Positions 18,432 to 51,299 of a stretch of 64,000 nt of DNA are shown here, in pieces (position 1 is the first letter of the stretch; each line of letters opens with the position of its first letter). This DNA comes from an uncultured Acidobacteriota bacterium (GTDB lineage Bacteria; Acidobacteriota; Thermoanaerobaculia; Multivoradales; UBA5704). Under the pieces are notes generated by a model. It made no database searches. It had not been told where the DNA came from and was given only the letters and a program-made list of their open reading frames with translations. The translations under genes were made by a program, and so were the position numbers. Location: contig CAVWNC010000004.1 in assembly GCA_963756455.1 (NCBI GenBank), positions 503,098 through 567,097 on the forward strand. Direction: 5' to 3'.

Positions 18432-18453
18432 AGGGATTAGGTCGAGCGAGAGG

Positions 18454-18675: not shown

Positions 18676-18677
18676 CG

Positions 18678-20254: not shown

Positions 20255-20275
20255 GGTGGGATCGAAACCAGGGTA

Positions 20276-22632: not shown

Positions 22633-22633
22633 G

Positions 22634-24034: not shown

Positions 24035-24043
24035 GGCGAGCTT

Positions 24044-27776: not shown

Positions 27777-29968
<2,192 letters not shown>

Positions 29969-29972
<4 letters not shown>

Positions 29973-31868: not shown

Positions 31869-31898
31869 TTGACAATACCGGGCAATCTAAAGTATCAT
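31869..31898 (+). promoter_or_regulatory. sigma70-type promoter candidate for the STAS gene
   Basis: TTGACA (31869-74), an 18-nt spacer, then TATCAT (31893-98), in a low-GC intergenic patch about 100 bp upstream of ATG 32002. Confidence 0.45.
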
Positions 31899-32001
31899 CC
31901 AGATAGTTCACCGGCACATCATCGGCAGTCCAAAGAGCCCACGAGGGCTCGTCATGCACGGCAGAAGCGCCCGGCAGAAATGCGGGCAGGGGGAGAGTCG
32001 T

Positions 32002-32352
32002 ATGCAGATCGAGGAGAGCAGGGAGGGAGAGGTCGTCATCGTCGAGCCCAGGGTGGCTCGCTTGGACGCCCAGCAGGCGATCGGTTTCAAAGAGGGCCTG
32101 CTCCGATTGGTCGAGGGCGGCGATCGCCAGCTCATCCTCGACCTCAACTACGTGGAGTTCATGGACAGCAGCGGCCTCGGTGCCGTGGTGGCGATTTTGA
32201 AGCGCCTGGGCTTCCATGGCGTGCTGGTGATCTGCAATGCCCACCAGGCGGTGTCCGAGCTCTTCCGGCTGACCCGCATGGACAAGGTGATCCAGCTGGT
32301 CGGGACCCGGGCGGACGCCCTCACTCTGGCCCACGCCGAGAGCCTGAGTTGA
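32002..32352 (+). CDS. STAS-domain anti-sigma-factor-antagonist-like protein (SpoIIAA family)
   Basis: LILDLNYVEFMDSSGLGAVVAILKRL has a conserved Ser in the DSSG motif. 116 aa. Confidence 0.7.
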   Translation: MQIEESREGEVVIVEPRVARLDAQQAIGFKEGLLRLVEGGDRQLILDLNYVEFMDSSGLGAVVAILKRLGFHGVLVICNAHQAVSELFRLTRMDKVIQLVGTRADALTLAHAESLS

Positions 32353-34677: not shown

Positions 34678-36367
34678 GCCGGCGCTCGCCGTTTTCGGCC
34701 TTCTCGGCCTGTTCGCCGTCCGCGGCAACCAGGTGGGGTATCTGCCGGGCTGGCCGAAGGTGGCCCTGCTGCAAAGCGGTGCGCTGACGATGACCTCGGC
34801 GGAGCTGCGGGAGACCGAAGGCGGCCGCGTCGTCTGGCGGGGCCGCGCCCGGCCGCTCGCTCGCCGGGGATCTGCCGGAGCGGGTTGGGCGACGGTCGAC
34901 TGGAGCGCGGTGCGGACCGCGGGCAGCTACGTCCTCTCGGTCGATGGGGTCGTCTCGCCCCCCTTCCAGGTGGGAGCGACGGTCTACGATCTTCCCTTGC
35001 GCTCGCTGCTGCGTTCCTACTTCCTCCAGCGCTGTGGGGTCGCCCTGGACGACGCCGAGACCGGCCTCAAGCACGGGCCCTGCCATACCGACGACGGGGT
35101 GACCGTCCGCGCCGATATCGACGGACCGGCCGGGCGCCGGCAGGCGGCGGCGGGCGGCTGGCACGACGCGGGGGACTATGGCAAGTACGTGGCGACCGGC
35201 ACTGTGGCGGTGGCGGAGCTCCTCTCGGCCTATGCGGCCTGCCCCGCCCTCTTCCCCGACGGCCAGCTCGGCATCCCCGAGAGCGGCAACGGGCGCTCGG
35301 ACCTGCTCGACGAGGTCACCGTCGAGCTTTTGTGGCTCCTCCGCATGCAGCGCGCGGACGGGGCGGCCTACAGCAAGCTTTCGGGAGCGCGGTGGCCCGA
35401 CCTCGTGCCGCCCGACGCCGACCTCCAGCCGCGCTACCTCTACGGTGTCTCGAGCGCCGAAACCGCCAAGCTCGCCGCGGCTTTCGCCTTCGCGGCGCGC
35501 GTCTTCGCGCCCTTCGATCGACCGGCCGCGGAGCGCTATCTGGAAGCGGCGAAGAAAGCCTGGAGCTATCTGGAGGACCACCCCGGCCAGTTTTTGGATT
35601 GGCGGGCCGAGGACGACTCCGGGTCGGGCAAGTACCGCGCTTCGGACATCGATCGCGAAGCGACGCTTCGGACCGATGAGGCCGATCGCTTCTGGGCGGC
35701 GGCGGAGCTCCTGCTGACGACGGGCGAGCCGCGCTTCGCGCGCTATGTCGACCGCCACGCCGCCGCCTTACCCTACACGCTCTTCGAATGGAAGAATCCC
35801 GCGCCGCTCGCCATGGTGCATCTGCTGACGGCGAAGGCGACGGGCCGGCCGGGCCGGGCCACGCGGGCTCTCCTGCGCAAGAAACTCCTGGCGCGCGCCG
35901 CCGCGATCCTCACCGTCGCGCGGCGCGATCCCTTCGGCCTCGCCAACGACCGCTTCATCTGGGGCTCCAACAAGATGGCGGCGGAGGACGGCATCACCCT
36001 CTGGTGGGCCTGGCGGGCGACCGGTCGCGCCGAGCTGCGGGCCCGGGCGCTCGACCAGCTGCACTACCTTCTCGGCCGCAACGCGCTCGGCAAAAGCTTC
36101 GTCACCGGCGTGGGCGCCGATCCGGTGCGGCAGGTGAGCCATATCTTCGCCCGCGCGGTGAAGCTCGACGTTCCCGGGCTTCTGGTGGGCGGCCCCAACG
36201 AGCTCGAACAGTCGGGGATCGCTCCCCGCGGCCAGGGATCTCTGAGCTACGCAGACGATGCGCGCTCCTACGCCACGAACGAGTCGGCGATCGACTACAA
36301 CTCCGCTCTCGTCGGGCTTCTCACCTTCGCTCTCGCCGAGCCGCTCGGCGACCGGTGCCGACCATGA
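34667..36367 (+). CDS. glycoside hydrolase family 9 endoglucanase-like protein
   Basis: Start overlaps the GH2 stop. GGWHDAGDYGKY is the GH9 signature. (alpha/alpha)6-type composition with an N-terminal Ig-like domain. Confidence 0.65.
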   Translation: MRIEPALAVFGLLGLFAVRGNQVGYLPGWPKVALLQSGALTMTSAELRETEGGRVVWRGRARPLARRGSAGAGWATVDWSAVRTAGSYVLSVDGVVSPPFQVGATVYDLPLRSLLRSYFLQRCGVALDDAETGLKHGPCHTDDGVTVRADIDGPAGRRQAAAGGWHDAGDYGKYVATGTVAVAELLSAYAACPALFPDGQLGIPESGNGRSDLLDEVTVELLWLLRMQRADGAAYSKLSGARWPDLVPPDADLQPRYLYGVSSAETAKLAAAFAFAARVFAPFDRPAAERYLEAAKKAWSYLEDHPGQFLDWRAEDDSGSGKYRASDIDREATLRTDEADRFWAAAELLLTTGEPRFARYVDRHAAALPYTLFEWKNPAPLAMVHLLTAKATGRPGRATRALLRKKLLARAAAILTVARRDPFGLANDRFIWGSNKMAAEDGITLWWAWRATGRAELRARALDQLHYLLGRNALGKSFVTGVGADPVRQVSHIFARAVKLDVPGLLVGGPNELEQSGIAPRGQGSLSYADDARSYATNESAIDYNSALVGLLTFALAEPLGDRCRP

Positions 36368-38154
36368 GCTTCTATTTCGATCGCTTCGAGGATCGCCGCC
36401 CGCCCGCGCCGTTACCTTATTCGGCGGCCCGGGAGCTCCTCTGGCAGTTCCTCGCGGCCTTGAGCCTCGGGCTCGGCGCCTGGTACATCGCCTGGCGTTG
36501 GGGCGGGTCGCTCAACCGCCAGGCGCTGTGGTTCGCCATCCCTCTGGTGCTGGCGGAAACCTGTGCCTATATCGGCATGGTCCTCTTCACCTTCAACCTC
36601 TGGCGCGACACGCCGCCGTCGATCCCCGAGCCGCCGCGCCGGATCGCCGAGTGCGTGGCCGCCGCCGTGGCGGAGGACCGGCCGCTCCGGGTGGACGTCT
36701 TTTTCCCCACCTACAACGAGGAGCTCGACCTCGTCCGGCTGAGCGTCGAGGACGCCAAGCGGCTCTCCTATCCCTATCCGATCGATATTCGCATCCACGT
36801 CCTCGACGACGGTCGCCGCGACGACATGCGGCAGCTCGCGGCGGAGCTCGGGGTCGGCTACATCACCCGCACGAGCAAGGCCGGCTTCAAGGCCGGCAAC
36901 CTGCGAAACGCCATGGAGCAGACCGACGGCGACTTCATCGTCATCTGCGATGCCGACACCCGGCCGTTCCCCACTCTCCTGGAGCACACGCTCGGCTACT
37001 TCCGCGATCCCGAGATGGCGTGGGTGCAGACGCCGCAGTGGTTCTTCGATCTCCCCGCGGGGAGCCGTCTGCCGGCGGCCTGGGGGCGCCGGCTGGGGGC
37101 CATCGGCCGTCTTCTCGGGCGGGGCGTCGAGGCCTGCATCGGGCCGGTGACGGTGGGCGCCGATCCCTTCGTCAACGATCCGCAGATGTTCTACGACGTC
37201 ATCCAGCGCCGTCGCGGTTGGGCCAACGCCACCTTCTGCTGCGGCGCGGGCTCCGTGCACCGCCGGGAGGCGGTGATGGAGGCGGCGGTGAAGGGTTGGG
37301 TGGCGCAGATCGACGACGAGGTTCGGCGGGTGAAGGAGAGCCTGGGGGAGGCAGACGTCCCTGGTGGCTTGGAAGCGGCGATGCGCCGCCAGGTCGCCCG
37401 CGACATCGAGCTCACGCCCTACAAGTTCCACGTTTCGGAGGACATCTACACCTCGATCGTCCTCCACGGCGACCGCGACCGGCACTGGAAGTCGGCGTTT
37501 CACCCCTATGTGCAATCGAAGATGCTGTCCCCTCAGGATCTGCAGACCTGGGCCATCCAGCGCTTCAAGTACGCCGGCGGCACCCTGGACATCTGCCTGC
37601 ACGACAACCCGGTCTTCCGGCGTGGTCTCGACTGGCGGCAGAAGGTGATGTACGCCTCGACTTTGTGGTCGTATTTCGGCGGCCTGTGGAACGTCGCCTT
37701 CCTCGCCTCGCCGGTGATCTTCCTGTTCACCGGCATCGCCCCGGTTGCGAGCTACTCGTTCGAGTTCTTCAAGCACGCGCTGCCGTTCCTGATCGCCAAT
37801 CAGCTCGCGACGATGGTGGGCACGTGGGGCGTCGAGAACCTGAAGGGCAAGGGCTCGTTCATCTCCTTTTTCTCGCTCAACCTGCGCGCCCTGTGGACGG
37901 TCGTGCGCGGCGAGACGATCAAGTTTCCGGTCACCCCCAAGGAGCGGCAGAGCGGTACGTTCTACCGCCTGGTGAAGCCGCAGATCGCCTTCATCGCCCT
38001 CACTCTCGCCGGTCTCCTCGTGCAGGCGCTGCGGCTTCTCTTCTGGCACCGGGGCGATCCCGGCGCCTACCTGACCAATCTTTTCTGGGGCTTGAACAAC
38101 GTCTACCTGCTGTCGGGCATCGTCCGCGCGGCGGGCTTTAAACCCGAGGAGTGA
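36364..38154 (+). CDS. membrane GT2 processive beta-glycan synthase (cellulose-synthase-like), lacking a PilZ domain
   Basis: Start overlaps the GH9 stop. TM helices flank a GT-A domain with VFFPTYNEE, VLDDGRRD, IVICDADT (DxD), TEDI-like VSEDIYTS and a Q-R-F-K-Y variant of QxxRW. Confidence 0.65.
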   Translation: MSFYFDRFEDRRPPAPLPYSAARELLWQFLAALSLGLGAWYIAWRWGGSLNRQALWFAIPLVLAETCAYIGMVLFTFNLWRDTPPSIPEPPRRIAECVAAAVAEDRPLRVDVFFPTYNEELDLVRLSVEDAKRLSYPYPIDIRIHVLDDGRRDDMRQLAAELGVGYITRTSKAGFKAGNLRNAMEQTDGDFIVICDADTRPFPTLLEHTLGYFRDPEMAWVQTPQWFFDLPAGSRLPAAWGRRLGAIGRLLGRGVEACIGPVTVGADPFVNDPQMFYDVIQRRRGWANATFCCGAGSVHRREAVMEAAVKGWVAQIDDEVRRVKESLGEADVPGGLEAAMRRQVARDIELTPYKFHVSEDIYTSIVLHGDRDRHWKSAFHPYVQSKMLSPQDLQTWAIQRFKYAGGTLDICLHDNPVFRRGLDWRQKVMYASTLWSYFGGLWNVAFLASPVIFLFTGIAPVASYSFEFFKHALPFLIANQLATMVGTWGVENLKGKGSFISFFSLNLRALWTVVRGETIKFPVTPKERQSGTFYRLVKPQIAFIALTLAGLLVQALRLLFWHRGDPGAYLTNLFWGLNNVYLLSGIVRAAGFKPEE

Positions 38155-38167
38155 AAGGAGCGGCGCC

Positions 38168-39526
38168 GTGACGTTCAAGGAAGGGCTCATCCTGTCGCGT
38201 GGCCATCTCGTCTTCCTGGCCGGTCTCGCGGCGGCGTTCGGCATCGCCATCGCGCTCGAACGGGAAAAAATCCAGGTTCCGGTCCATGCGTCCGCTTCCC
38301 AGGTGACGGCGACGATGACCGCTCCGGGTCCGCCGCTGGCGCTGCCGGCGGTTCCGCCGCCCGGGCCGCTGTCGGCGGCGGACCTGGCGCGGGCGCAGCG
38401 GGCCTGGTCCTACTTCGAGGTCAACCGGCGACCGGAGACCGGGCTCGTCGACTCCGTCGACCGCTATCCGGCGACGACGATGTGGGATACGGCCTCCTAC
38501 CTGATGGCCTTGATCGCCGCCCGCCGCCTGGAGGTGATCCCACAGGCGACTTTCGATGCGCGGATCGCGGCCGCCCTGGGCGCCCTCGCGCGGCTGCCGC
38601 TCTTCGCGGGCAAGCTGCCCAACAAGTCGTACAACACGCAGTCTCTCGCCATGGTCGATTACAGCAACCACCCCACGCCGCGCGGCATCGGCTGGTCGGC
38701 GATCGACATCGGCCGCCTGCTCGTGCCGATGAACATCCTCGTCTGGCAGCAGCCGCAACACACCCCGGCCGTGCGCGCGGTCGTGGCGCGCTGGCAGCTC
38801 GCCGACCTGGTGCGCGACGGCCGGCTCTTCGGGGAGATCCTGAAACCCGACGGCCAGGTCGCGAGCCAGCAGGAGGGGCGCCTGGGGTACGAGGAGTACG
38901 CGGCCAAGTCGTTCACGCTCCTCGGGCAGGACGTCTCCGAAGCCCTCGGATACCGGGAGTTCGTGCAGTGGGTGAAGATCGACGGCATCGAGGTCGCGAC
39001 CGACAGCCGGACGCCGCAGCTCTTCGGGGCGCACAATTACGTCGTGAGCGAGCCCTACGTCCTCGACGGCCTGGAGTTCGGTTGGGATCGCGCCAGCCGC
39101 GATCTCGCGGCGCGGGTCTTCGCCGCGCAGGAGGCGCGCTTCCACCGCACCGGGGTGCTCACCGCGGTGAGCGAGGACAACATCGACCGGGCGCCCTATT
39201 TCGTCTACAACACCGTTTTTAGCGACGGCAAGGCGTGGAACACGCTGACCGACACCGGGGCCGATGCTTCGGTCGACCGGAGCCTGAGCGTCAAGGCGGC
39301 CTTCGGTTGGGATGCGCTCTACCGGACGGCCTATACCGCCCAGCTCGTCGCGGCGGTCGAGGGTCTTTACGATCCGGCGCGCGGCTACTATTCCGGCCGC
39401 TACGAGAGCGACGGCCAGCCGAATCGGGCGATCACCTGCAACACCAACGCGATTCTTTTGGAAAGCCTCGCCTACCGTCACCTCGGCCCGCTGGTCCAAG
39501 GCGACGCCGGGAAGAGCGCGCCATGA
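38168..39526 (+). CDS. paralog 1 of an unidentified about 450-aa secreted/membrane-anchored family
   Basis: GTG start with an AAGGAG RBS. N-terminal TM anchor. Family motifs are RAWSYFEVN, TGLVDSVDRYPATTMWDTASYLMAL, LPNKSYNT, IGWSAIDIGRLL and QEGRLGYEEYAAKSF. Confidence 0.6.
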   Translation: MTFKEGLILSRGHLVFLAGLAAAFGIAIALEREKIQVPVHASASQVTATMTAPGPPLALPAVPPPGPLSAADLARAQRAWSYFEVNRRPETGLVDSVDRYPATTMWDTASYLMALIAARRLEVIPQATFDARIAAALGALARLPLFAGKLPNKSYNTQSLAMVDYSNHPTPRGIGWSAIDIGRLLVPMNILVWQQPQHTPAVRAVVARWQLADLVRDGRLFGEILKPDGQVASQQEGRLGYEEYAAKSFTLLGQDVSEALGYREFVQWVKIDGIEVATDSRTPQLFGAHNYVVSEPYVLDGLEFGWDRASRDLAARVFAAQEARFHRTGVLTAVSEDNIDRAPYFVYNTVFSDGKAWNTLTDTGADASVDRSLSVKAAFGWDALYRTAYTAQLVAAVEGLYDPARGYYSGRYESDGQPNRAITCNTNAILLESLAYRHLGPLVQGDAGKSAP

Positions 39527-41055
39527 CGCCGCGTTGGCCGGCCTTTCTGCTGGTCGGCATCGCCGCGCTGACCGCGCTGGGGGGCCCTCTCGGCTGCAGC
39601 GGCTATGCGGCGAAGGCGGCTCCCGCGACGAGCGCGGCCGGCACGGCGGCCGTCTCCAGGGTGGAGCGCGAAGCGACGGCGGCGGCGGCCTGTGCCACCG
39701 GGCAGGGGCAGACGCAACCGGTCTGCTGCATGGCGACCGCGGCCTGCTCGGGCACGGCCCGTCATCCCGGGCGGAACGGCTGCCTGACGCCGAAAGAGCT
39801 CGAAATGGCGAAGATCGCCTGGCGGTACTTCGAGAACAACGAGCAGAAAGAGACCGGCCTCGTCAACGCCGTCGACACCTACCCGTCGACCACCCTGTGG
39901 GACACCGCCTCCTACCTGGGGGGGCTGATCGCCGCCCATCGCCTCTGCCTCATCCCGACGAGCGAATTCGATCGCCGGGTCGTCGCCCTGCTCCACACTC
40001 TGGGCTCGGTTTCGCTCTACCGGGGCGAGCTGCCGAACAAGGTGTACAACACGAAGACGGCGGAAAAAGTGAACTATGGGAACGTTCCCGGTGAGATCGG
40101 CTTTTCCGCCCTCGATATCGGCCGTCTCTTGATCTGGCTCCGCATCCTCCGCGAGTACTATCCGGAGCACGGCAACGCCGCGGACAGAGTCGTCATGCGC
40201 TGGAACTTCTGCCACGTCGTCGACGCCTGCGGCACCCTCTTCGGGGCCTACATCGATACCGACAAGTCGACCGTCTACGCGCAGGAGGGACGGCTCGGCT
40301 ACGAGGAGTACTCGGCCCAGGGCTTCGATCTCTGGGGAGCACCGGCGCCGCGGGCGGAGCTGCCGGAGCCCTACGCCGTCATCCCGATCTACGGCATCGA
40401 CATCCCGTACGACACCCGCGACCCGCGGGAGCTCAAGGCGCACAACTACGTCGTCTCCGAGAGCTACATCCTTTCCGGCATCGAGCTCAACTGGGACCTG
40501 GCTTCCGACAAGAGCGAAGACGACATGCACCACAGCATCCCCTGGATGGCGGATTTCGCCGACCGCATCTACCGCGTGCAGGAGGCGCGCTACAAGGCGA
40601 CAGGAATCGTGACGGCGCGCACCGAGCACCAGCTGGACAGCGCACCCTACTTCGTCTACGACACGATCTTCAGCGACGGCTTCGCCTGGAACACGATCAC
40701 CGAGGAGGGCCTGTATTCGCCGCGTTTCGCGGCGATCGCGATCAAGGGCGCGCTCGGCCTCTGGGCACTCTGGGATACGCCTTATACCGACCTGCTGTTC
40801 CGCATCGTCGCCAACAAATACGATCCGGAGAAGGGTTTCTACGAGGGGATCTACGAGGACGGCCGGGGCGTGATCAAAACCTTCACCGCCAACAACAACG
40901 GGATTCTCTTAGAGCTCCTGCTCTACAAGGTGGAGGGCAAGCTCCTGCGCTTCAGCGGCGCGCCGAGCCTCTGGGAGCACTATCTGGTCAACGAGCGCTC
41001 GAACGGCGCGGTGCGCTGCGTGCCGCGCAGTGTCAGCTGCAAGGATCCACCTTGA
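39523..41055 (+). CDS. paralog 2 of the same family, lipoprotein
   Basis: ATGA overlap with paralog 1. Lipobox LGGPLGC. Same motifs: TGLVNAVDTYPSTTLWDTASYLGGL, LPNKVYNT, IGFSALDIGRLLIWLRI and QEGRLGYEEYSAQGF. Confidence 0.6.
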   Translation: MTPRWPAFLLVGIAALTALGGPLGCSGYAAKAAPATSAAGTAAVSRVEREATAAAACATGQGQTQPVCCMATAACSGTARHPGRNGCLTPKELEMAKIAWRYFENNEQKETGLVNAVDTYPSTTLWDTASYLGGLIAAHRLCLIPTSEFDRRVVALLHTLGSVSLYRGELPNKVYNTKTAEKVNYGNVPGEIGFSALDIGRLLIWLRILREYYPEHGNAADRVVMRWNFCHVVDACGTLFGAYIDTDKSTVYAQEGRLGYEEYSAQGFDLWGAPAPRAELPEPYAVIPIYGIDIPYDTRDPRELKAHNYVVSESYILSGIELNWDLASDKSEDDMHHSIPWMADFADRIYRVQEARYKATGIVTARTEHQLDSAPYFVYDTIFSDGFAWNTITEEGLYSPRFAAIAIKGALGLWALWDTPYTDLLFRIVANKYDPEKGFYEGIYEDGRGVIKTFTANNNGILLELLLYKVEGKLLRFSGAPSLWEHYLVNERSNGAVRCVPRSVSCKDPP

Positions 41056-42476
41056 GGTCAGGGCCGTTGCGCGGTCGCTGGTGCCGGGCTCTCTCGCTCG
41101 CGGCGGCGATCCTGCTCGCCGGCTGCGGCGTGATCGTCCGCGGTGTCTATCGTGGGGTCTCTTCGGTCCGCGATTCCGAGCTCTTCCACCAGGGCCGGCA
41201 CGGCCCCTTGAGCGACGAGGAAAAGGAATGGGCGAAGGCGGCGTGGAAATACTTCGAGAACAATGAGAACCCCGCGACCGGGCTCGTCGGCTCGGTCGAT
41301 CAGTACCCGGCCGCGAGCCTGTGGAACCTGGCGGATCACCTGGCGGCGATGCTCGCCGCCAAAGAGCTCGGGCTCATCACCCAGCGCGACCTCGACGCCC
41401 GCCTGAGCCTCACCCTCCAATTTCTCAACACCATGCCCCTCTTTCTGGATCGGCTGCCCAACCGCCTTTACAACACGGCGAGCGGCCGCATGGTCAACTA
41501 TGCCAACCAGCCGGAGGCGATCGGCTGGTCGGCGATCGATCTCGGCCGGCTGCTGCTCTGGCTGCGGATCGCCGCCCAGCGCTACCCGGCCTATCGGGAG
41601 TACATCGAGAAAGCCGTGCTCCGCTTGAGCTTCTGCGACGTCGTGGACGAGTGCGGCGGGCTCCACGGCGGCGCCCGCATGCAGGATCGGCTGCAGCTGC
41701 TGAGCGAGGGGCAGCTGGGCTACCAGCAGTACGCCGCCCTGGGCTTTCAGGCCTGGGGCTTCGACACCACCCGCGCCTCGCGGATCGCGCCTTTCGCGCG
41801 CCTCAAAATCGACGGCGTCGAGATCCTCTACGACGCGGAAGATCCGAGAGAGACCGGCGGCTTCGCGCCGGTCCTCTCCGGCCCCGCCGTGCTGGAGGGC
41901 CTGGAGCTCAACTGGGATCGCGTCGACGACCGGACGAGCAACGACACCGAGCACAGCGATTTCGTCCTGGCGGATCTGGCAGAGCGCATCTACGCCGTCC
42001 AGGAGGCCCGCTTTCGGCAGACCCACGTGCTGACCGCGCGGACGGACCATCCGCTGTCGCAGAACCCTTTTTTCGTCTACGACTCGATCTTCGTCGCCGG
42101 CTATCCGTGGAACACCATCTCCGATCACGGCGACGTCTTCCTCGACAAGTCGCTGGTTTCGACCCGCGCCGTCTTCGGCCTCTGGGCGCTCTGGCGGACC
42201 GCCTACACCGACGAGCTGATGCGCGGCACGCGCCACCTCTACGACCCCCAGAAGGGGTGGTTCGAGGGGCGCTACGAGGCGACCGGCGGCTACGAGCGGA
42301 CGATCTCCTGCACCACCAACGCCATCGTCTTGGAGAGCCTCCTCTACAAGCTTCAGGGCAAGCTCTTCGGGCGCGACGCGCCCGGCTCGTATCTGACGGC
42401 GTTCCTGGCCGACCCGTTCCGCCATCCGGGGCGCTGCTTTCCGAACGAGAGGGCGGGATGCAAAGGCGAGCCTTGA
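41052..42476 (+). CDS. paralog 3 of the same family, lipoprotein (TTG start)
   Basis: Lipobox LLAGCGV. TGLVGSVDQYPAASLWNLADHLAAM, LPNRLYNT, IGWSAIDLGRLLLWLRI and SEGQLGYQQYAALGF. Confidence 0.55.
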   Translation: MRSGPLRGRWCRALSLAAAILLAGCGVIVRGVYRGVSSVRDSELFHQGRHGPLSDEEKEWAKAAWKYFENNENPATGLVGSVDQYPAASLWNLADHLAAMLAAKELGLITQRDLDARLSLTLQFLNTMPLFLDRLPNRLYNTASGRMVNYANQPEAIGWSAIDLGRLLLWLRIAAQRYPAYREYIEKAVLRLSFCDVVDECGGLHGGARMQDRLQLLSEGQLGYQQYAALGFQAWGFDTTRASRIAPFARLKIDGVEILYDAEDPRETGGFAPVLSGPAVLEGLELNWDRVDDRTSNDTEHSDFVLADLAERIYAVQEARFRQTHVLTARTDHPLSQNPFFVYDSIFVAGYPWNTISDHGDVFLDKSLVSTRAVFGLWALWRTAYTDELMRGTRHLYDPQKGWFEGRYEATGGYERTISCTTNAIVLESLLYKLQGKLFGRDAPGSYLTAFLADPFRHPGRCFPNERAGCKGEP

Positions 42477-44449
42477 TCCGCTGGGCGCGACTCGGGCTGA
42501 GAGCCGGCCGGATCGCGATCGTGATCGCGCTCGCCGCCGCTCGCTCGGCTCCGCTCGTCGCCCTCACGGATCCCAACACCCACGGGCGCGAGTTGCTCCA
42601 GGCCGGCGACCCGCGCACGGCGGGGGTCGCCTGGCTCGCCGCCGCCGCGGAGCAGTCGCGGGAGGGGAGCAACCCCGGCGTCCTGCGACAGGCGGCCCTG
42701 TCGGCGGTTCTCGCGACGATCGCTTTCGAACGCGCCAGGGATGGGCGCGCCTATGTCGCCTGGTCGCAGGCGATCCGCTGGTGGCTGGAGGCCGGCACCT
42801 CCTGGGAAGTGGAGCGCGCGGTCCTCGGCCGGCGGGTCCGCGAGATCCAGGCCAGCCTGCGGGGCGCGGAGGTGACCGCCGGAGGTCCCACCCCGGCGGC
42901 GGGGGAGCTCCAACTCCTCGCGCTCGCGTCCGCCACCGGCTTTCTCGACTACTCGGGGCCGCGGCCGGGCCTGCCCTCTCCCCAGGAGGACGCCGGGCTG
43001 CCGATCCCCGTGCAACGCGACTACTTCGCGCGTCCGCTGGGGGTGGAAGAGGAGGAGAAGAGCGCTCCCGAGACGCGGGGCCGCGTAGCAGAGGAGCCGC
43101 CGCCGGCCCTGGCTCTGGACCCCACTGCGAGCCCGGCCCCAGTTTCACCTGCCGGGCTTGGCGGGCACGGCTTGCCGAGCGCGGGCTCCCCCGCGGAGAT
43201 CACTCCCGCTCCGACTCCCAGCCTGCCGCCTCCGGCGCCTACGCCTGAGAAGCCCGCCGAGCCGAAGGGCGAGGCCGCGCCGCTCGCCATGACGGACCTG
43301 GCGGTGGCGCGGGCGGCCTGGCGGTACTTCGTCGCCGCCCGGCAGGAGAACACCGGGCTCTACAACTCCGTCGCCGGCTACCCCTACGCCACCCTGTGGG
43401 ATCTGGGCAGCGGGCTCGCCGGCCTGGTCGCGGCCGAGCAGCTCCACATCCTCGATGCGGGGAGCTTCCACCGCGATGCCGTGCTGTTCTTGACGACGCT
43501 GCGTGAGATGTCGCTCTACAAGGGCGAGCTGCCCAACCGCGAATACCAGACGCAGAGCGGCCGCATGGTCGATCTCCTAAACCACCCGTCGCCGGTCGGA
43601 AGCGGTTGGTCGGCGCTCGACCTCGGACGCCTGCTGATCTGGCTGCGGATCACCGCCGACTTCTATCCGGACCTCCGCCCGCGGGTCGAGAAGGTGGTCC
43701 AGCGGTTCGATTTCTCCCGCCTCGCGGCCGGCGGCGAGATGCACGGGGCGATCGTCACCAAAAACGGCGAGAGCCTCAACCAGGAAGGGCGCTTGGGCTA
43801 TGAGCAGTACGCCGCCGCCGGTTACGCTCTCTGGGGCGTGGCCCTCCAGGCGGCGCACGGCTACGGAGAGATCGTCTTCACCCCGCTCGACGGCCAGAGC
43901 GTCCCGCGCGACCGGCGCGAGAACGCCAATCTGACGAGCGACCCGTTCATCCTCGCCGGCCTCGAATTGGGCGGCATCGACCCGACCTTCCAGGGTTTCA
44001 CCGAGACCGTCCACGCCGCCCAGCGGCGGCGTTTCGAGACGACCCGGATGCTGACCGCGGTGGGGGAGGATGCGCTCGACCAGGAGCCCTGGTTCGCCTA
44101 CAACTCGGTCTTCGCCGACGACCGGCCCTGGCAGTGCCGGAGCGCCGGCGGCCGCGACGTTCCCGAGCTGCGGACGCTCGGCACCAAGGCGGCGTTCGGC
44201 TGGGCGGCCCTCTACCCCGACGACTACGGCAAGCGCCTGCGCCGGGCCGTCGAGCCGTTGCTCCATCCGCGCCTCGGCTTCTACGCCGGGATCTACGAGC
44301 GCGATGGCGCGACCAACAAAGCGCAGAACGTCAACACCAATGCCGTCATCCTGGAAGCGATGCTCTTCTTACAGCGCGGCGGCAAGCCCTTTCTCGACCT
44401 CCCGGCGATCCCGGCCGGGCCGGAGCCTCAGCGCGGCACCCAGCGGTAG
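42458..44449 (+). CDS. paralog 4 of the same family with an about 280-aa N-terminal extension and a Pro/Ala-rich linker
   Basis: ATG 42458 with MQRRALIRWARLG signal-anchor. TPAPTPSLPPPAPTPEKPAEPKGEAAP linker. Then TGLYNSVAGYPYATLWDLGSGLAGL, LPNREYQT, SGWSALDLGRLLIWLRI and QEGRLGYEQYAAAGY. The 5' portion of track ORF 41321..44449 is an out-of-frame artefact. Confidence 0.55.
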   Translation: MQRRALIRWARLGLRAGRIAIVIALAAARSAPLVALTDPNTHGRELLQAGDPRTAGVAWLAAAAEQSREGSNPGVLRQAALSAVLATIAFERARDGRAYVAWSQAIRWWLEAGTSWEVERAVLGRRVREIQASLRGAEVTAGGPTPAAGELQLLALASATGFLDYSGPRPGLPSPQEDAGLPIPVQRDYFARPLGVEEEEKSAPETRGRVAEEPPPALALDPTASPAPVSPAGLGGHGLPSAGSPAEITPAPTPSLPPPAPTPEKPAEPKGEAAPLAMTDLAVARAAWRYFVAARQENTGLYNSVAGYPYATLWDLGSGLAGLVAAEQLHILDAGSFHRDAVLFLTTLREMSLYKGELPNREYQTQSGRMVDLLNHPSPVGSGWSALDLGRLLIWLRITADFYPDLRPRVEKVVQRFDFSRLAAGGEMHGAIVTKNGESLNQEGRLGYEQYAAAGYALWGVALQAAHGYGEIVFTPLDGQSVPRDRRENANLTSDPFILAGLELGGIDPTFQGFTETVHAAQRRRFETTRMLTAVGEDALDQEPWFAYNSVFADDRPWQCRSAGGRDVPELRTLGTKAAFGWAALYPDDYGKRLRRAVEPLLHPRLGFYAGIYERDGATNKAQNVNTNAVILEAMLFLQRGGKPFLDLPAIPAGPEPQRGTQR

Positions 44450-45651
44450 AGCACCTTGTAGCGCACGAGAAGCCAGAGGATCGCCAAGGCCGCCGTGTGG
44501 AGGAGGGTATTGATCCACAGGTCGCCGTGCTCCGTCGTCAGGTGGAACGGAAATGCGTTGCTGAAGAGCGCCAGCACGTAGACGTGGACGACGAAGACAT
44601 AGAGCGAGGCCTGGCCGATGGGGATGAAGAACCAGCCGAAGGCGCGTTCGAGCGGTCGCCAGAGGAGGGTCAGAAGAGTGAGAGCGGCGACCAGGGCCAC
44701 GGCATCGTTTAAGACCCGCAGCGGTCCCAGGGTATTTTTGAGAAAGTAGGGATCGTACAGCTTGTTGAAGACCGTTGGCGGAATCATCGCCAGGCGCGCG
44801 TAGGCCGGGATGAGCGGATTGGGCGTGTTCTGGGCGAAAAAGAAGAAGGCGCCGAAGAGGATGCAGCAGGCGATGAGGAGCGGCCGGCCGCGCCGGCCGC
44901 TCATGAAGGCGAAGACGCTCTCCCGGTAATAGCCCAAGGTCAGGCCGTGGACGTAGAGGAGCTGCCAGGTGAGAAGGGGGAAGGCGTATTCGAACTGCGC
45001 TCCGGTCGGCATCTGCGGGTAGGCCCAGTTGAAAATGTAGAAGAGCCACGAGAGCGCGAGAAGGAGACGCCAACGCCCCTGCCGCAGGAGGAAGAGAGCG
45101 AACGGCGAGAGAGCCAGAAGACACACGTAGAGACCGAGGATCTGGATCTGGTGCGGTCCGCCGCGCAGAGTGAGGATGCGGGCGAGCCAGGTTTGCACGT
45201 TGTTGCCCGGCTCGGGGTAGAGCTGGTAGACGGTGCCGGAGCCGCGGTCGGTGAAGCTCATCACGGCCCGCATGTCCAGGACGGGCAGGAGACTCAGGAG
45301 AAAGATGCTGACGCTCACGAAGACGTTGACCCGGTAGAGGAGCGTCGCGCGGTCGAAGAGCTTGAAGCCGGCGTCGCGCCAACCCTTTTCCTCGATGCGC
45401 CGCCGGTAGATCATACCGATCACCGAGCCGGAGAGAAGGACGAAACCTTCCGCTCCGGAGATCACCCCGAACCTCTCCCAGGCGAGAAAGTTGTAAAGGG
45501 AAAAAATCTCGAAGTGGACGACGACGAGGACGAGCATCACGACTCCGCGCAGGAAGTCGATCCGCAGATCACGGCCGTCCGCGGTGGGACTGTAGGCCCA
45601 GGCATGCCGCGGGCCGGCCGGCGGTAGGACCGCGGCGATCGATTCGTTCAT
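44428..45651 (-). CDS. OpgC-like / acyltransferase-3-related integral membrane protein (candidate glucan acyl/succinyl-transferase)
   Basis: 407 aa with about 10 TM helices. N-terminal RIDFLRGVVMLVLVVVHFE resembles OpgC/acyltransferase-3 family N-termini. Its 3' end converges on and overlaps paralog 4 by 22 bp. Confidence 0.4.
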   Translation of the reverse strand: MNESIAAVLPPAGPRHAWAYSPTADGRDLRIDFLRGVVMLVLVVVHFEIFSLYNFLAWERFGVISGAEGFVLLSGSVIGMIYRRRIEEKGWRDAGFKLFDRATLLYRVNVFVSVSIFLLSLLPVLDMRAVMSFTDRGSGTVYQLYPEPGNNVQTWLARILTLRGGPHQIQILGLYVCLLALSPFALFLLRQGRWRLLLALSWLFYIFNWAYPQMPTGAQFEYAFPLLTWQLLYVHGLTLGYYRESVFAFMSGRRGRPLLIACCILFGAFFFFAQNTPNPLIPAYARLAMIPPTVFNKLYDPYFLKNTLGPLRVLNDAVALVAALTLLTLLWRPLERAFGWFFIPIGQASLYVFVVHVYVLALFSNAFPFHLTTEHGDLWINTLLHTAALAILWLLVRYKVLYRWVPR

Positions 45652-45676: not shown

Positions 45677-46021
45677 TCAGCCGGCGGCGAGCGCTTCGAC
45701 GGCCTCCTCGGGGGTCGCGAAGAGCCGCAGGACGCGGTCGAGCCGGGTCAGCTTGATGAGCTCGGTGACCGGCTTCCGGCAGCCGGCGAGCGCCAGGATC
45801 CCGCCCTCGGGCGGCAGGCGCTTCAAAGCCGAGAGGATGGCCGAAAGGCCCGTGCTGTCGACGAAATCCACGGCGGAAAGGTCGAGCACGAGGAGGGACA
45901 GGCCGGTCCCGATGCGGTCGCCCATCCGGGTTTTGAAATCCGGTGCGCCGGCGGCGTCGAGCCGGCGGTCGAGGAGCTTGGCGAGCGTGACGCCGTGCGA
46001 GAGAGAAAAATCGATGTTCAT
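45677..46021 (-). CDS. second STAS-domain anti-sigma-antagonist-like protein
   Basis: LVLDLSAVDFVDSTGLSAILSALKRL carries the DSTG motif. 114 aa. Confidence 0.65.
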   Translation of the reverse strand: MNIDFSLSHGVTLAKLLDRRLDAAGAPDFKTRMGDRIGTGLSLLVLDLSAVDFVDSTGLSAILSALKRLPPEGGILALAGCRKPVTELIKLTRLDRVLRLFATPEEAVEALAAG

Positions 46022-46055
46022 GGCATCTCCTTGAAAGGCCTGGCCGCCGTTTCCG

Positions 46056-46742
46056 TCAGCGCCCGACCAGAAGGACGGTGGAATGGGGAGCGACCGTGTA
46101 GGTGAAGGCGTCGACGAGGAGCGGCTCGGCGCCGTCGGGGTTGAAATCGAAAGGCGAGGGAAGGGCGCTGTCGGCGGCGAGGCGGAAGCGGCGGTCGCCC
46201 AGAAGCGGCAGCTCGCAGAGCACGGCTTCGTCGCTCGAGTTGGCGAGGACCATCAGGGCGTCGTCGGTTTTTCCGCCAGGACCGGGATCGCCGATCGGCT
46301 CGCCGCCCCAGCCGGCGGCGCCGACCAACGCCTTGGCGAACGGATCGAGCAGCTCGCACCGCGGATCGAAACGCTTGAGAGGAATATCCGCCGCATCGGG
46401 CGCCTCGGGCGGACCGCCGGCGCGAAAGGCGTACTCGACCCCGGGGTCGAGGCCGGCCACGAACGCATGCCAGATGTCGCCCGTGCGGTTCGTTCGCGGG
46501 TCGAGGACGAGCTCGATGGCCGGCATCGCGACCGCTTCCGCGGTCGGCGTGCCGGGCGGGTAGAGGATCAGGTGGACCCACGAGGCGTGCGCCGAGACGA
46601 CGGCGAAATTGATGCCGCGCCGGCGGAGCGTGGCGCCGAGCGGCAGGGGATGGCCGCGCTCGACGGCGAACTCCGGGCTGACCAGGCCGAGGAGCGCGGT
46701 CCGCGGATCGCGCTCCCCGGCGGTCTCGGGGGCGACGTTCAT
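46056..46742 (-). pseudogene. glgX: internally deleted glycogen debranching enzyme (GlgX/isoamylase) remnant: N-terminal CBM48-like domain fused to the C-terminal domain, with the catalytic barrel missing
   Basis: PLGATLRRRGINFAVVSAHASWVHLILY and EYAFRAGGP...RFDPRCELLDPFAKAL match the GlgX N-terminus. LMVLANSSDEAVLCELP...TVLLVGR matches the C-terminal domain. Only 228 codons fit between the neighbours. The ATG overlaps the glgP TGA. Confidence 0.55.
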
Positions 46743-49205
46743 TCGGGGACACTCCGCAGGTCCCAGATCTCGTCCGCGTACTCGCGGATCGTCCGGTCGC
46801 TCGAAAACTTGCCGGTCCGCGAGACATTGAGGATCGCCTTTCGCCACCACTCTCCGGGCTCTCGGTACTGCCGCCCCGCGAGCTCCTGGGCCTCGCGGTA
46901 CGCGGCGAAGTCCGCCAGGTGGAAATAGGGATCACCGTGGTCGACGAGGTTCCGCCGGACCCAGTCGAAGCGGCCCGGGAAGCCCGGCGAGAACCGATCG
47001 CCGGAGAAGGCGTCCAGCACGCGGCGGAGGGCGGGATCGTTCGCATAGAGGTCGGCCGGCCGGTAGGCGCCGCTCGCCTTCAACGCCGCGATCTCATAGA
47101 CCTTGAGCCCGAAGATGAAGATGTTCTCCGCGCCCACCTCTTCGCGGATCTCGACGTTGGCGCCGTCCAGAGTGCCGATCGTCAGGGCGCCGTTCATGGC
47201 GAACTTCATGTTGCTGGTGCCCGAGGCCTCGGTGCCGGCGGTCGAGATCTGTTCGGAGAGGTCGCCCGCGGGGATGATGATCTCGGCGAGCGACACCCGG
47301 TAGTCGGGAACGAAGGCGACGCGCAGCCAGTCGCGGGCGCGGGGATCGTTGTTGACCACCTCGGCCAGGCTGTTGATGAGGAGGATGATCTGTTTCGCCA
47401 CCCAGTAGCCGGGCGCCGCCTTGCCGGCGAAGACGTAGGTCTTGGGCACCGGCGGGGTCTCCCGGTCCTCGACCAGGGCGAGATACTGATGGGCGATGTG
47501 CATGGCGTTCAGCAGCTGGCGTTTGTACTCGTGGATGCGCTTGACCTGGATGTCGAACAGCGAGGTCGGATCGACCTCGATGCGGGTCGAGTCGGCGATC
47601 AGCTCCGCCAGGCGCTCCTTGTTCTGGCGCTTGACGGCAGAAAAGGCGTCGTGGAACCCGACGTCGTCCGCCAGGGCTTCGAGCCCCCGCAGCCGTTCGA
47701 GATCCGCCGGCCAGCCGGTCCCCACGGCTTCGTCGAGGAGCCGCGCGAGCCCGGGGTTGGCGGTGAGCAGCCACCTTCTCGGGGTGACCCCGTTGGTCTT
47801 GTTGTTGAACTTCTCCGGCCAGAGCGCATAGAAATCGGGCACGAGATCGGTCTTCACGAGCTCCGAGTGCATGGCGGCGACGCCGTTGACCGCGTGGCTG
47901 CCGACGATCGCCAGATGCGCCATCCGCGCCTGCTTGGGCTCGCTCTCCTCGATGATCGACATCCGGCGCAGGCGATCGACGTCGCCCGGCCAGCGTTCGG
48001 CGACCCCGGCGAGGAAGCGGTGGTTGACCTCATAGAGGAGCTGGAGGTGGCGCGGCAGGACGTGCTCCAGGAGCGGCACGGACCAGCGCTCCAGCGCCTC
48101 CGGCATGAGCGTGTGGTTGGTGTAGCCACAGGTGGCGCAGACGACCTTCCAGGCCTCCTCCCACGGCAGGTCCCTTCTCGTCGAGCAGCAGCCGCAGGAG
48201 CTCGAGCACCGCGAGGGTCGGGTGGGTGTCGTTGAGCTGGATCGCGACGTGCTCGGCGAAATCCTTGAAATCGGCATTCGGACGCCGCTCGAAACGGCGC
48301 ACCATGTCGCGTACCGCGCAGGCAACGAGGAAGTACTCCTGCAAGAGACGCAGCTCGCGCCCGGCGGCCACGGCGTCCGAGGGGTAGAGCACCTTCGAGA
48401 TGGTTTCCGATTCCATCTTCTGCTCGACGGCGCGCAGGTAGTCGCCACCGTTGAAGATCTCCATGTCGAATTCCTGCGAGGAGCGGGCGGCGAACAGGCG
48501 GAGCCAGTTGACCGTCCGGCCGCCGTAGCCGACGATGGGGAAGTCGTAGGGCACGCCGACCAGGGCCTTCCAGCCGAGCCAGAGCGGCACGTAGTTTCCC
48601 GCCGCGTCCTCCGCATGCTCGATGTGGCCGTAGGCGGGGACGTGGCAGGCCTCGTCCGGGCGCTCGATCTCCCAGGGGCTGCCGTAGGCGAGCCAGTTGT
48701 CGGGCTGCTCGCGCTGGCTGCCGTTGTCGATCTCCTGCCGAAAGAGGCCGTACTCGTAGTGGATGCCGTAGCCGAAGCCCGGCAGGTCGAGGCTGGCCAG
48801 AGAGTCGAGAAAGCAGGCGGCCAGCCGGCCGAGGCCGCCGTTGCCGAGAGCCGCGTCGTGCTCGGTCTTAAGCACCGTCTCCAGGTCGCCACCGACCCCG
48901 ATCAGAGCCTGGCGCGCCGCGTTCAAGGCGCCCAGGTTCTGCAGGTTGTTTTCGAGCGAGCGGCCGGCGAGGAACTCCATCGAGAGGTAGTACAGCCGCT
49001 TGGCGTCGGCCTTCAGGTAGCGCTCCTCGGTGTCTAAAAGATGCCCGACGGCCTCTTCGCGGACGGCCAGGGCGGTGGCGTTGAACAGCTGGGGCGGCGT
49101 GAGAGCGCCCTTGGGCAGGCCGAGACTGACGCGGGCGTGATGCTCGATCGACGCCGTCCAGGTTCCATTGGTGGAACCGGCCGGCCGCACTGCGGTCGTT
49201 GCCAT
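46739..49205 (-). pseudogene. glgP: glycogen/maltodextrin phosphorylase gene with a +1 frameshift in a G-run near 48168-48173
   Basis: The N-half is in ORF 48030..49379 (EFLAGRSLENNL, LGNGGLGRLAACFLDS) and the C-half in ORF 46739..48892 (CATCGYTNHTLMPEALERW, and the PLP-site TAGTEASGTSNMKF). The frames join as LLLDEK|DLPWEEAW if one G is removed from aaggga. RBS GGAGG precedes ATG 49205. Confidence 0.65.
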
Positions 49206-49589
49206 GTTCGCCTCCGTGATCGGAAGGGACGACCGACGCGTCGGAGGCCCTTGATGTGTGTGAGTGGCTGAAAAGCAGTGTGCGCTCAACTGCGAGTTTC
49301 TGTCAAGTGCTGGGGAAGGGGCGATATGGGCAAATCGCCGCATCCGAGGTGAGGGGTAGAGACGCCCAGCCGCTACCACGGCTTTTCCGCGACCACGAAC
49401 ACCAGGGCGTCTCTGGCCTGCGGAGACGCCCTGGCGTCAGGGTTCCGGGGATTTTTGAGGTAACGGCTGGACGTCTCTACGAAGACCCTGTCGGGCCGCG
49501 GAGAGCTAGCCCCGAGGCTGTCAAGACAGAAAAAGCACCCGCTGTCGCCCGAAGGCGTCATTCCTAGATCCAGGGGCGGCATTTCAGGT

Positions 49590-50987: not shown

Positions 50988-51299
50988 TTAGCCCTGGGAG
51001 TCGGAGCCGGTGGAGACCTCCGGTTCATCGTCAGTCGCCGTCTTTGACTTGCCCTCGCTGTCGACCGTCCCCAAGGCGTAGACGCAGATCTCCTCGAAAG
51101 AGACCCGGTTCTCCTCAGCAATGTCCATCAGCTTCTGGAAGCTTTCCATCACCTCCGGGGGCATGGTGCCGCTGCGCATCTCCCGCAGCCAGGCGGCCTG
51201 GAACTTGAGCGGGTGGCGCCCCGAAAGGGGTTTGCCGACATAGATGTGGAACGGGGCCTTGGTGCCATTGAAGTCACAGGGAATCGTGAATCGCTTCAT
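50988..51299 (-). CDS. small conserved hypothetical protein (103 aa) translationally coupled to the STAND gene
   Basis: MKRFTIPCDFNGTKAPFHIYVGKPLSGRHPLKFQAAWLREMRSGTMPPEVMESFQKLMDIAEENRVSFEEICVYAL. I recall this N-terminal pattern from a DUF-type small-protein family (possibly DUF2610), but cannot verify it. Its ATG overlaps the STAND TGA (ATGA). Confidence 0.5.
   Translation of the reverse strand: MKRFTIPCDFNGTKAPFHIYVGKPLSGRHPLKFQAAWLREMRSGTMPPEVMESFQKLMDIAEENRVSFEEICVYALGTVDSEGKSKTATDDEPEVSTGSDSQG

Follow-up and report, generated by a model that had tools for sequence, protein, structure and literature searches.

The stretch of DNA analysed here (the window, 64,000 nucleotides of contig CAVWNC010000004.1 from an uncultured Acidobacteriota bacterium) contains four tandem genes, D1 to D4, whose products belong to the Pfam family DUF3131 and are predicted to be exported (alpha/alpha)6 barrels, ancient paralogs with separate functions. 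They constitute the envelope-side half of a conserved and horizontally mobile glucan system, the other half being a BcsA-like synthase of the GT2 family that lacks a PilZ domain. As to their role, we regard it as reasonably probable that the DUF3131 paralogs form an envelope module that binds the nascent beta-glucan of the synthase and cuts or transglycosylates it. Both DUF3131, as a Pfam family, and the gene set, in genome papers, were already known; the present analysis adds a proposed membership of DUF3131 in a fold group and a widespread, mobile synthase system.

Synthase-dependent glucan systems (those for cellulose, curdlan, mixed-linkage and periplasmic glucans) influence biofilms, osmotic adaptation and interactions with hosts, and each of the known systems combines, to our knowledge, a membrane synthase of the GT2 or GT84 family with characteristic envelope partners. 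In the system described here, a distinct BcsA-like synthase, with the motif QRFKY and without PilZ, is accompanied by several (alpha/alpha)6 barrels in an array, and the only relatives of these barrels that have been characterised are enzymes that cleave beta-1,2-glucan or make it cyclic. The system also brings a predicted outer-membrane barrel outside any Pfam family and regulators of the STAS type.

A conserved DUF3131 array beside a BcsA-like synthase

The four genes follow one another on the forward strand with overlaps of 4 nt between D1 and D2 (ATGA), 4 nt between D2 and D3 (TTGA) and 19 nt between D3 and D4, from which their translational coupling may be presumed. Their boundaries are identical to the recorded gene calls, all of them lie on a single NCBI/ENA contig, and their GC content at third codon positions (0.83-0.89) is the same as that of the adjoining genes. 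In an alignment of the four proteins, D2 to D4 are 41-43% identical to D1, 86 columns are invariant, and the motifs AW.YFENN, TGLV.SVD.YP..T.WD.AS, LPNK.YNT, IGWSA.D.GRLL.WLRI and QEGRLGYEEYAA can be recognised. The N-terminus of D1 is a hydrophobic anchor, D3 has a canonical lipobox (LLAGC), D2 a weaker one (GPLGC), and D4 starts with about 280 extra residues that end in a proline-rich linker and give no Pfam match (residues 1-281). The open reading frames (ORFs), the recorded gene calls and the alignment thus bear out the initial annotation, which had described four tandem paralogs with these motifs and N-termini. Some loci of Shewanella, Vibrio and Aliivibrio (L053, L066, L071, L072) have segments similar to the N-terminal ~200 aa of D4 (window 42458-43300, forward strand) as separate ORFs adjoining D3 or D4.

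The glycan synthase that had been noticed next to the array proved to be a BcsA-like GT2 protein. Its similarity to the BcsA structures (E ~1e-35) ends at BcsA residue ~576, just ahead of the PilZ domain, and the domain scan gave no PilZ match on it; it also matches the NCBIfam CelA model (1.5e-66), far under the equivalog cut-off. The motifs DDG, KAGN, CDAD, FCCGAG, SED, QRFKY and FPVTPK, the last one corresponding to the gating loop, are kept in at least 90% of 77 orthologs, and such conservation of QRFKY, which stands in place of the QxxRW of BcsA, marks a distinct synthase subfamily. Neither BcsB nor BcsC domains were found in any of the ORFs scanned, covering ~26.4-51.3 kb of the window.

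Relatives are encoded in at least 563 loci of species-representative genomes, the best 80 of which were used for the locus counts, with each ORF labelled by its best-matching window protein. The GT2 gene lies directly upstream of D1 in 77 of these 80 loci, and the common layout is STAS-(GH2-GH9)-GT2-D1-D2-D3-(D4), with the gene of the barrel protein and at times that of the acyltransferase OpgC close by. STAS genes are present in 70 loci (usually just upstream of GT2), the barrel protein in 48, GH2 in 29, GH9 in 14 and OpgC in 9. In 47 loci the genes follow one another as D1-D2-D3(-D4), 32 of these loci having D1-D2-D3 and 15 D1-D2-D3-D4; D4 orthologs were found in 15 loci, each time after D3. 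D1 stands alone after GT2 in another 29, among them loci of the Thiothrix type and some cut by contig ends. The genomes include those of Vibrio, Photobacterium, Shewanella, Ferrimonas, Thiothrix, Leucothrix, Noviherbaspirillum, Sphaerotilus, Deltaproteobacteria, Kapaibacteria and Bacteroidota, and GT2-D1 loci span the Gamma-, Beta-, Delta- and Alphaproteobacteria, the Bacteroidota and the Kapaibacteria.

In a neighbour-joining tree each paralog group forms a clade of its own (purity 0.99-1.0), with identities of 0.43-0.72 within groups and 0.28-0.44 between them. Since these group-specific clades extend across phyla, the duplications are older than the lineages and each copy has been held in its place in the operon, in agreement with the ancient and maintained duplication proposed at the outset. 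The N-terminal features are also conserved: a hydrophobic anchor is found in 89 of 91 D1 orthologs, together with a motif, FK.GL.RARSH..FL.GL, that recurs in those inspected, a lipobox-like motif in 41 of 52 D2 orthologs, and a lipobox followed by CGV(I/V)VRG in at least 34 of 48 D3 orthologs, while the orthologs of D4 have long proline-rich N-terminal extensions. Single polypeptides with two, three or four DUF3131 domains joined by proline-rich linkers exist in nature (P0342-P0346; locus L086 9836-12679), an example being P0342, of 1820 aa, with four domains. These multi-domain fusions suggest that the separate paralogs work together.

Several versions of the cluster reside on mobile elements. 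Plasmid pDSJ10 of Pantoea stewartii DC283 carries genes for an RsbW-like kinase, a SpoIIE phosphatase, the barrel protein (ortholog of that in the window, E 2e-50), one 'cellulose synthase', three proteins of the DUF3131 family, a globin, a hybrid kinase and a GH2 enzyme. A Nostoc plasmid has DUF3131 genes with a glycosyltransferase, a PIG-L deacetylase, STAS, SpoIIE and an anti-sigma factor, and a plasmid of Paracoccus liaowanqingii (L088) combines two GH16 genes, OpgC, SpoIIE, GAF, a glycosyltransferase, three DUF3131 genes, a TPR protein, a kinase and STAS. The two GH16 genes and the TPR protein of this Paracoccus cluster are found where the window has GH9 and GH2. The pairing of synthase and DUF3131 genes extends to all three of these plasmids. 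In a more distant case, a Sulfitobacter plasmid (L087), a 30%-identical DUF3131 domain ends an 838-aa protein with a Tat-type signal, encoded directly after a different glycosyltransferase of 1021 aa. OpgC is also part of the Klebsiella, Salmonella and Paracoccus versions.

The gene set had not gone unnoticed, as it is mentioned, without study, in genome papers on Klebsiella and Salmonella. An accessory block of K. pneumoniae that carries it has been tied to the main axis of population structure of the species (PMC12974863). In Salmonella Mississippi, the island SGI3, also present in Yersinia intermedia, was described in 2012 with genes for OpgC, a cellulose synthesis protein, a beta-galactosidase, a histidine kinase, an anti-sigma antagonist and a serine phosphatase, DUF3131 not being named there (PMC3401170); this gene list agrees with the type of cluster seen here.

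Fold, distant relatives and conserved residues

The four proteins match PF11329 over its full length, from profile positions 1-3 to 366-367 of 367, with 361-498 bits against a gathering score of 20.3 (E values from 8.6e-108 to 1.8e-149), whereas no NCBIfam model matches any of them. The family is not an unrecognised one, as had been stated initially, but a curated Pfam entry, and public annotation already names its members 'DUF3131 domain-containing protein'. A profile search of 1.84 billion representatives gave 1380 DUF3131 clusters at 50% identity with E <=1e-3, and 601 with E <=1e-30.

The fold comparison covers D1 in its predicted structure, an AlphaFold model built on 35 sequences (mean pLDDT 90.3, pTM 0.86) in which a helix at the N-terminus is followed by a disordered linker and then by a helical (alpha/alpha)6 barrel. 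When this model was compared with the PDB by Foldseek, the top 20 matches all belonged to the group of beta-1,2-glucanases and glucan cyclases (E 2e-10 to 2e-6, TM scores 0.5-0.64, probability 1.00): GH144 and 'putative glucoamylase' relatives (4qt9, 3eu8, 5gzk, 5z06, 4gl3, 8xul), GH189, GH192 (8xuj), GH194 (8xuk) and the fungal GH162 (6imw). Other (alpha/alpha)6 enzymes, such as GH15, the GH8 enzyme BcsZ and epimerases, came later and with lower scores. Two of the checks that the initial annotation had proposed, HMMER against Pfam and an AlphaFold model with a structure search, returned DUF3131 and folds of the GH144/GH189 type, and its suggestion of a DUF family tied to (alpha/alpha)6 beta-glucanases such as GH144 was well founded.

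At the sequence level, a single-sequence search of PDB sequences gave chance matches only. The DUF3131 family profile, however, matches the GH189 cyclisation domain 8wy1 (E 9.4e-5, residues 66-154), and hhalign finds the same ~90 residues, at 88.7% probability, in the cyclisation domains of cyclic glucan synthases (Cgs) from plasmids. Precomputed PF11329 matches are also borne by Cgs fragments, and a homology search with the 96-aa fragment of 8wy1 yielded short fragments only and no full-length Cgs. Brucella BMEI1837, listed as a DUF3131 protein, is presumably a cyclic glucan synthase as well. The Foldseek, profile, hhalign and precomputed matches together suggest that DUF3131 branches off at some distance within the clan known as SGL or GH-S, in the sense of membership of a fold group. 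The clan was named by Nakajima et al. (PMC12102758), whose 2025 survey of the beta-1,2-glucanase group does not mention DUF3131.

In each of the four paralog groups, at least 85% of the sequences share three acidic residues that may serve catalysis, E236 (within QEGRLGYEEY), D279 and E303, and the same degree of conservation applies to Y82, N86, N152, Y155, R183, R238, Y244, F345, W357 and N427. The catalytic set of GH189, defined in TiCGS as the acid/base E1356, E1400, the nucleophile E1442 and the pair H1536/H1537 (PMC10834661), is found at exactly the same intervals in three homologs of Cgs. In DUF3131, no histidine is conserved in any group, which argues against a His-His pair of the GH189 type. 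Resemblances between DUF3131 and GH189 seen by eye (QEGRL with SEARL, VSED with (I/V)SE(A/S)) were not used as evidence. The residues that define clan GH-S are E239, F286 and Y367 in XcSGL (PMC12102758); in DUF3131, the Glu, Phe and Tyr residues kept universally are E236, E303, F345, Y82, Y155 and Y244, and the alignments by sequence or profile reach no further than the first ~90 residues.

Proposed role of the array and alternative explanations

The most likely pathway would start with the GT2 synthase, which would polymerise UDP-glucose and thread a beta-glucan across the inner membrane. D1, held beside the synthase by its conserved transmembrane helix, would take up the chain, which would then be bound in turn by the lipoproteins D2 and D3 and, where present, by the tethered D4. 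D2 to D4 would cut or transglycosylate the chain and so fix its length and shape, OpgC would acylate the product, and the 12-strand outer-membrane barrel may release it. The STAS protein, with inputs from kinases and phosphatases (in the window, a histidine kinase and a GGDEF regulator), would probably act as the on-switch in place of PilZ. A precedent for STAS control of a synthase instead of a sigma factor comes from Anabaena, where a polysaccharide glycosyltransferase is the direct target of a switch based on STAS phosphorylation (PMC13555669, 2026). The initial annotation had proposed a processing or scaffold complex next to the synthase; the adjacency of GT2 and D1, the differing anchors and the fusions fit such a proposal, whereas the physical complex itself, and catalysis as opposed to scaffolding, is what we infer from them.

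Several observations weigh against a chain-cutting module of this kind. The sequence homology to a characterised family comprises the first helical hairpin only (~90 residues); hhalign in global and local modes, with whole domains, C-terminal halves or middle segments, aligned this hairpin and otherwise gave meaningless results, and since the rest of the domain would not align to GH189, catalytic residues cannot be mapped onto DUF3131. Acidic positions kept in D1 and D2 are lost in D3 (107, 295, 300, 340) and D4 (242, 413, 432), and the third domain of one fused protein seems, by eye, to have a histidine for the Glu of QEGRLGY, equivalent to E236, so that some copies may be non-catalytic. The four-fold array is not required, because many loci of the Thiothrix type have just GT2 and D1. 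The hints about linkage conflict, as the fold relatives and OpgC point to a beta-1,2 or periplasmic glucan, and the synthase, GH9 and the GH16 genes of Paracoccus to beta-1,4 or beta-1,3 linkages. Finally, within the library searched, literature queries on DUF3131, PF11329, IPR021478 and combinations of the gene set retrieved mentions in genome annotations only, and no biochemical or genetic study.

The losses of acidic residues would be in keeping with D1 to D4 being pseudo-enzyme barrels that act as glucan-binding scaffolds or chaperones guiding the polymer to the outer membrane like BcsB or AlgK/AlgX. This is the main rival to a catalytic module, and it also gains from the related Group 4 protein PgSGL4, of the same fold group, for which no activity on beta-1,2-glucans was seen (PMC12102758), from the separate hydrolases (GH9, GH2, GH16) that many clusters already have, and from the absence of a BcsB homolog in the operon, whose role D1 could take. 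However, E236, D279 and E303 are maintained in all four groups across phyla, a pattern more typical of active sites than of mere binding surfaces, D1 and D2 retain every conserved acidic residue, and all characterised relatives of this fold are enzymes, which makes a purely structural role for the whole array rather unlikely in our estimation.

Much less probable is that these proteins are catabolic beta-1,2-glucanases for environmental or host glucans, as GH144 enzymes are in Bacteroidota and Chitinophaga, and lie beside the synthase by chance. Endo-beta-1,2-glucanases are indeed the best structural matches, and GH2 and GH9 glycosidases are encoded in the same operon. Against this, the adjacency to GT2, which holds across phyla and in distant subfamilies, is not a matter of chance, the conserved set lacks a sugar transporter, a SusCD pair, a beta-glucosidase and a phosphorylase, the transmembrane anchor of D1 and the fusions point to an assembly and not to secreted digestive enzymes, and identity to GH144 is only 10-15%. 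As for an assembly artefact, or a recent local amplification of copies without separate functions, which the tandem arrangement by itself could evoke and which the initial annotation had named as a result that would overturn it, this explanation is refuted for practical purposes: at 41-43% identity the copies are not recent identical duplicates, they fall in their own clades with same-position orthologs in other phyla, and their N-terminal targeting signals differ.

Returning to the catalytic module, a more far-reaching version can be put forward as a tentative possibility, about which we are doubtful ourselves. DUF3131 would be a new family of glycoside hydrolases or transglycosylases of clan GH-S, whose one to four anchored copies make up a trans-envelope line of several active sites that turns the linear chain of the PilZ-less BcsA-like synthase into an undescribed class of glucan under a switch based on STAS phosphorylation. 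This glucan could be a cyclic one, a branched one or one of defined size, at times with succinyl groups, and could stay in the periplasm or be secreted. If true, this would be a further widespread route to envelope glucans, carried by mobile islands in Klebsiella, Salmonella and Pantoea and encoded on the chromosome in many Vibrio, Photobacterium, Shewanella and Thiothrix. In any case, the system sits on accessory islands of K. pneumoniae that track an ecological gradient, on SGI3 of Salmonella and on a plasmid of the maize pathogen P. stewartii, and its solution would provide a function for a large DUF, probably a new glycoside hydrolase family, and an envelope polysaccharide of clinically and ecologically important bacteria.

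The wider cluster and its comparison with known systems

The coordinates of the array, the synthase and the accessory genes are given in Table 1.

Table 1. Features of the DUF3131 cluster in the window, in order of position.
Feature	Coordinates	Strand	Description	Evidence
Hybrid sensor histidine kinase	27777-29972	+	HisKA, HATPase_c, two REC, Hpt	Pfam; ortholog of the 'response regulator' gene of pDSJ10, E 2e-127
REC-GGDEF response regulator	29969-30862	+	Diguanylate cyclase type; ATG overlaps the kinase stop (ATGA)	Pfam GGDEF 2e-46, Response_reg 2.5e-21
Predicted outer-membrane beta-barrel	30866-31837	+	323 aa, signal peptide	12 predicted strands; AlphaFold pLDDT 85
Sigma-70-like promoter match	31869-31898	+	TTGACA, 18 nt, TATCAT; within the region's single AT-rich gap, the STAS gene lying ~55 nt downstream	11/12 match
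STAS-domain protein	31954-32352	+	Anti-sigma-factor-antagonist type, DSSG phosphorylation-site motif; first gene of the operon	Pfam STAS 6.5e-15; gene call recorded
GH2-family glycosidase	32395-34677	+	Signal-peptide-like N-terminus	Pfam GH2 domains; ortholog of pDSJ10 GH2, E 1e-193
GH9 endo-beta-1,4-glucanase-type enzyme	~34610-36367	+	CelD_N Ig-like domain	Pfam Glyco_hydro_9 5.6e-73
Processive GT2 synthase	36364-38154	+	BcsA-like catalytic and channel core without PilZ	GT2 Pfam domains; gene call on record
D1 (P1)	38168-39526	+	452 aa, GTG start; DUF3131 (alpha/alpha)6 barrel (predicted), N-terminal transmembrane anchor	PF11329 1.8e-149
D2 (P2)	39523-41055	+	510 aa; DUF3131 barrel, predicted lipoprotein (GPLGC|S)	PF11329 8.7e-122
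D3 (P3)	41052-42476	+	474 aa, TTG start; DUF3131 barrel, predicted lipoprotein (LLAGC|GVIVRGV)	PF11329 8.6e-108
D4 (P4)	42458-44449	+	663 aa; signal/anchor, ~200-aa region, Pro-rich linker, DUF3131 barrel at residues 283-641	PF11329 9.4e-123
OpgC-type membrane acyltransferase	44428-45651	-	AT3 family	Pfam OpgC_C 1.8e-53, Acyl_transf_3 3e-9
Second STAS-domain protein	45677-46021	-	DSTG motif; just upstream of OpgC	Pfam STAS 3.4e-17

The protein encoded at 30866-31837 has an internal repeat, PW(N/D)PDFTY.FGY.DWHP, gives no Pfam match even at E 10, and has 503 homologs, every one of them named hypothetical. Foldseek matched it to outer-membrane barrels only, among them OmpG, FapF, NanC and a porin for oligogalacturonate, at low TM scores (0.3-0.5), and its model makes it a candidate for the outer-membrane channel of the system. 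An earlier view of the cluster as one without an outer-membrane component was dropped on account of this predicted beta-barrel. The sigma-70-like sequence ahead of the STAS gene is the sole match in 15.5 kb, and it is suggestive only, because 0.9 matches would be expected by chance. Among the hydrolases, the closest solved relatives of the GH2 protein are GH2 enzymes of the beta-mannosidase type (E 8e-37), and the GH9 protein is nearest to 3x17, an endoglucanase (E 9e-118), with CelD and BoGH9A coming next; judging from a methionine at ~34664 ahead of a hydrophobic stretch, the true start of GH9 is probably downstream of 34610. D4 and OpgC converge, on the forward and reverse strands respectively, and their coding ends overlap by 22 nt (44428-44449), so that an intrinsic terminator would have no space between the two genes.

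With regard to regulation, the hybrid histidine kinase is likely a regulator of the cluster. The kinase and REC-GGDEF pair (27777-30862) is found here, versus a SpoIIE/PP2C phosphatase and an RsbW-like kinase in the Pantoea, Nostoc and Paracoccus versions; in Pantoea and Nostoc the phosphatase starts with a REC domain. The window, despite its two STAS genes, yielded neither an RsbW-like kinase nor a PP2C phosphatase, and the apparent SpoIIE matches arise from REC domains only.

Beyond the second STAS gene, an ORF at 46021-47046 (reverse strand) was rejected as an Arg-rich, wrong-frame reading, the CBM48 ORF at 46059-46850 being a better fit. A gene for a glycogen/maltodextrin phosphorylase (46742-49379, reverse strand) is split into an N-terminal part (48033-49379) and a C-terminal part (46742-48892) by a frameshift near 48170-48175, an apparent single extra base at '...LLLDEKG|PWEEAW...', which would correspond to either a pseudogene or a sequencing error. 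A second and unrelated polysaccharide cluster lies at 17232-25462 (reverse strand), with a Wzx-like flippase (Polysacc_synt_3), an O-acetylation pair of MBOAT and AlgX-like proteins, a GT4 glycosyltransferase, a CE4 polysaccharide deacetylase and a hexapeptide acyltransferase. The window also encodes a 2357-aa protein with a CHAT protease and a NACHT/AAA NTPase (50988-58369, reverse strand), preceded by a small DUF2610 gene, and two tandem MacB-type permeases of ~820 aa (MacB_PCD and FtsX) followed by a shorter FtsX-domain ORF (8052-13606, forward strand).

Among known systems, a close parallel is the GH189 cyclisation domain of Cgs, the only characterised family with detectable sequence homology to DUF3131. 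Both have the motif W.YFE and the same predicted (alpha/alpha)6 fold, with the highest query TM score (0.61), and in both a barrel is coupled to a glucan synthase on whose product it would act. However, GH189 is part of a protein of ~2800 aa together with GT84 and GH94, whereas the DUF3131 barrels are separate exported proteins beside a GT2; the GH189 domain has ~570 aa with a large insertion, against ~370 aa for DUF3131; and D1 to D4 carry DUF3131 only, next to a synthase of the BcsA type. The endo-beta-1,2-glucanases of clan GH-S, which comprise GH144 (CpSGL 5GZK, XcSGL 8XUL), GH162 (TfSGL 6IMW), GH192 (EeSGL1 8XUJ) and GH194 (PgSGL3 8XUK), give the best matches in structure (E 2e-10 to 8e-7, TM scores 0.5-0.64) and resemble DUF3131 as single-domain (alpha/alpha)6 barrels of ~400 aa, the bacterial members of which are exported. 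They differ in sequence, with 10-15% identity and no sequence or profile match, and they are catabolic, whereas the DUF3131 genes are tied to a synthase.

The cellulose (Bcs) system shares with the cluster a synthase with the same catalytic and gating-loop motifs, the GT2 being a BcsA homolog, a periplasmic endoglucanase in the operon (GH9 here, the GH8 enzyme BcsZ in Bcs), a membrane-anchored periplasmic partner directly after the synthase (D1 here, BcsB in Bcs) and an outer-membrane barrel encoded close by. On the other hand, the cluster has no PilZ, no BcsB and no BcsC with its TPR and barrel parts, QRFKY replaces QxxRW, the periplasmic partners are (alpha/alpha)6 barrels in one to four copies, and its regulatory genes are those of STAS partner-switch proteins and of a histidine kinase. 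In the pathway of osmoregulated periplasmic glucans (OPG), made up of the GT2 OpgH, the GH186 proteins OpgG and OpgD, and OpgC, an inner-membrane GT2 is likewise combined, according to PMC10514313, with glucanase-like paralogs in the periplasm by which the chain is shaped, and with OpgC. Nevertheless, the fold of OpgG and OpgD is that of GH186, no match of the MdoG/OpgG or OpgH type occurs in the cluster, whose GT2 is BcsA-like and not OpgH-like, OpgC accompanies only 9 of the 80 loci, and an outer-membrane barrel belongs to the GT2-DUF3131 set.

The systems for curdlan (CrdASC) and mixed-linkage glucan (BgsBA), with which DUF3131 can be compared by description only, are also short operons in which a PilZ-less BcsA-like GT2 is joined by accessory proteins, and two of these, CrdA and CrdC of the curdlan system, have unknown functions (PMC10819609). 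BgsA is under the control of cyclic di-GMP (PMC13438883). The GH9 and GH16 neighbours of DUF3131 loci would be compatible with beta-1,4 or beta-1,3 linkages.

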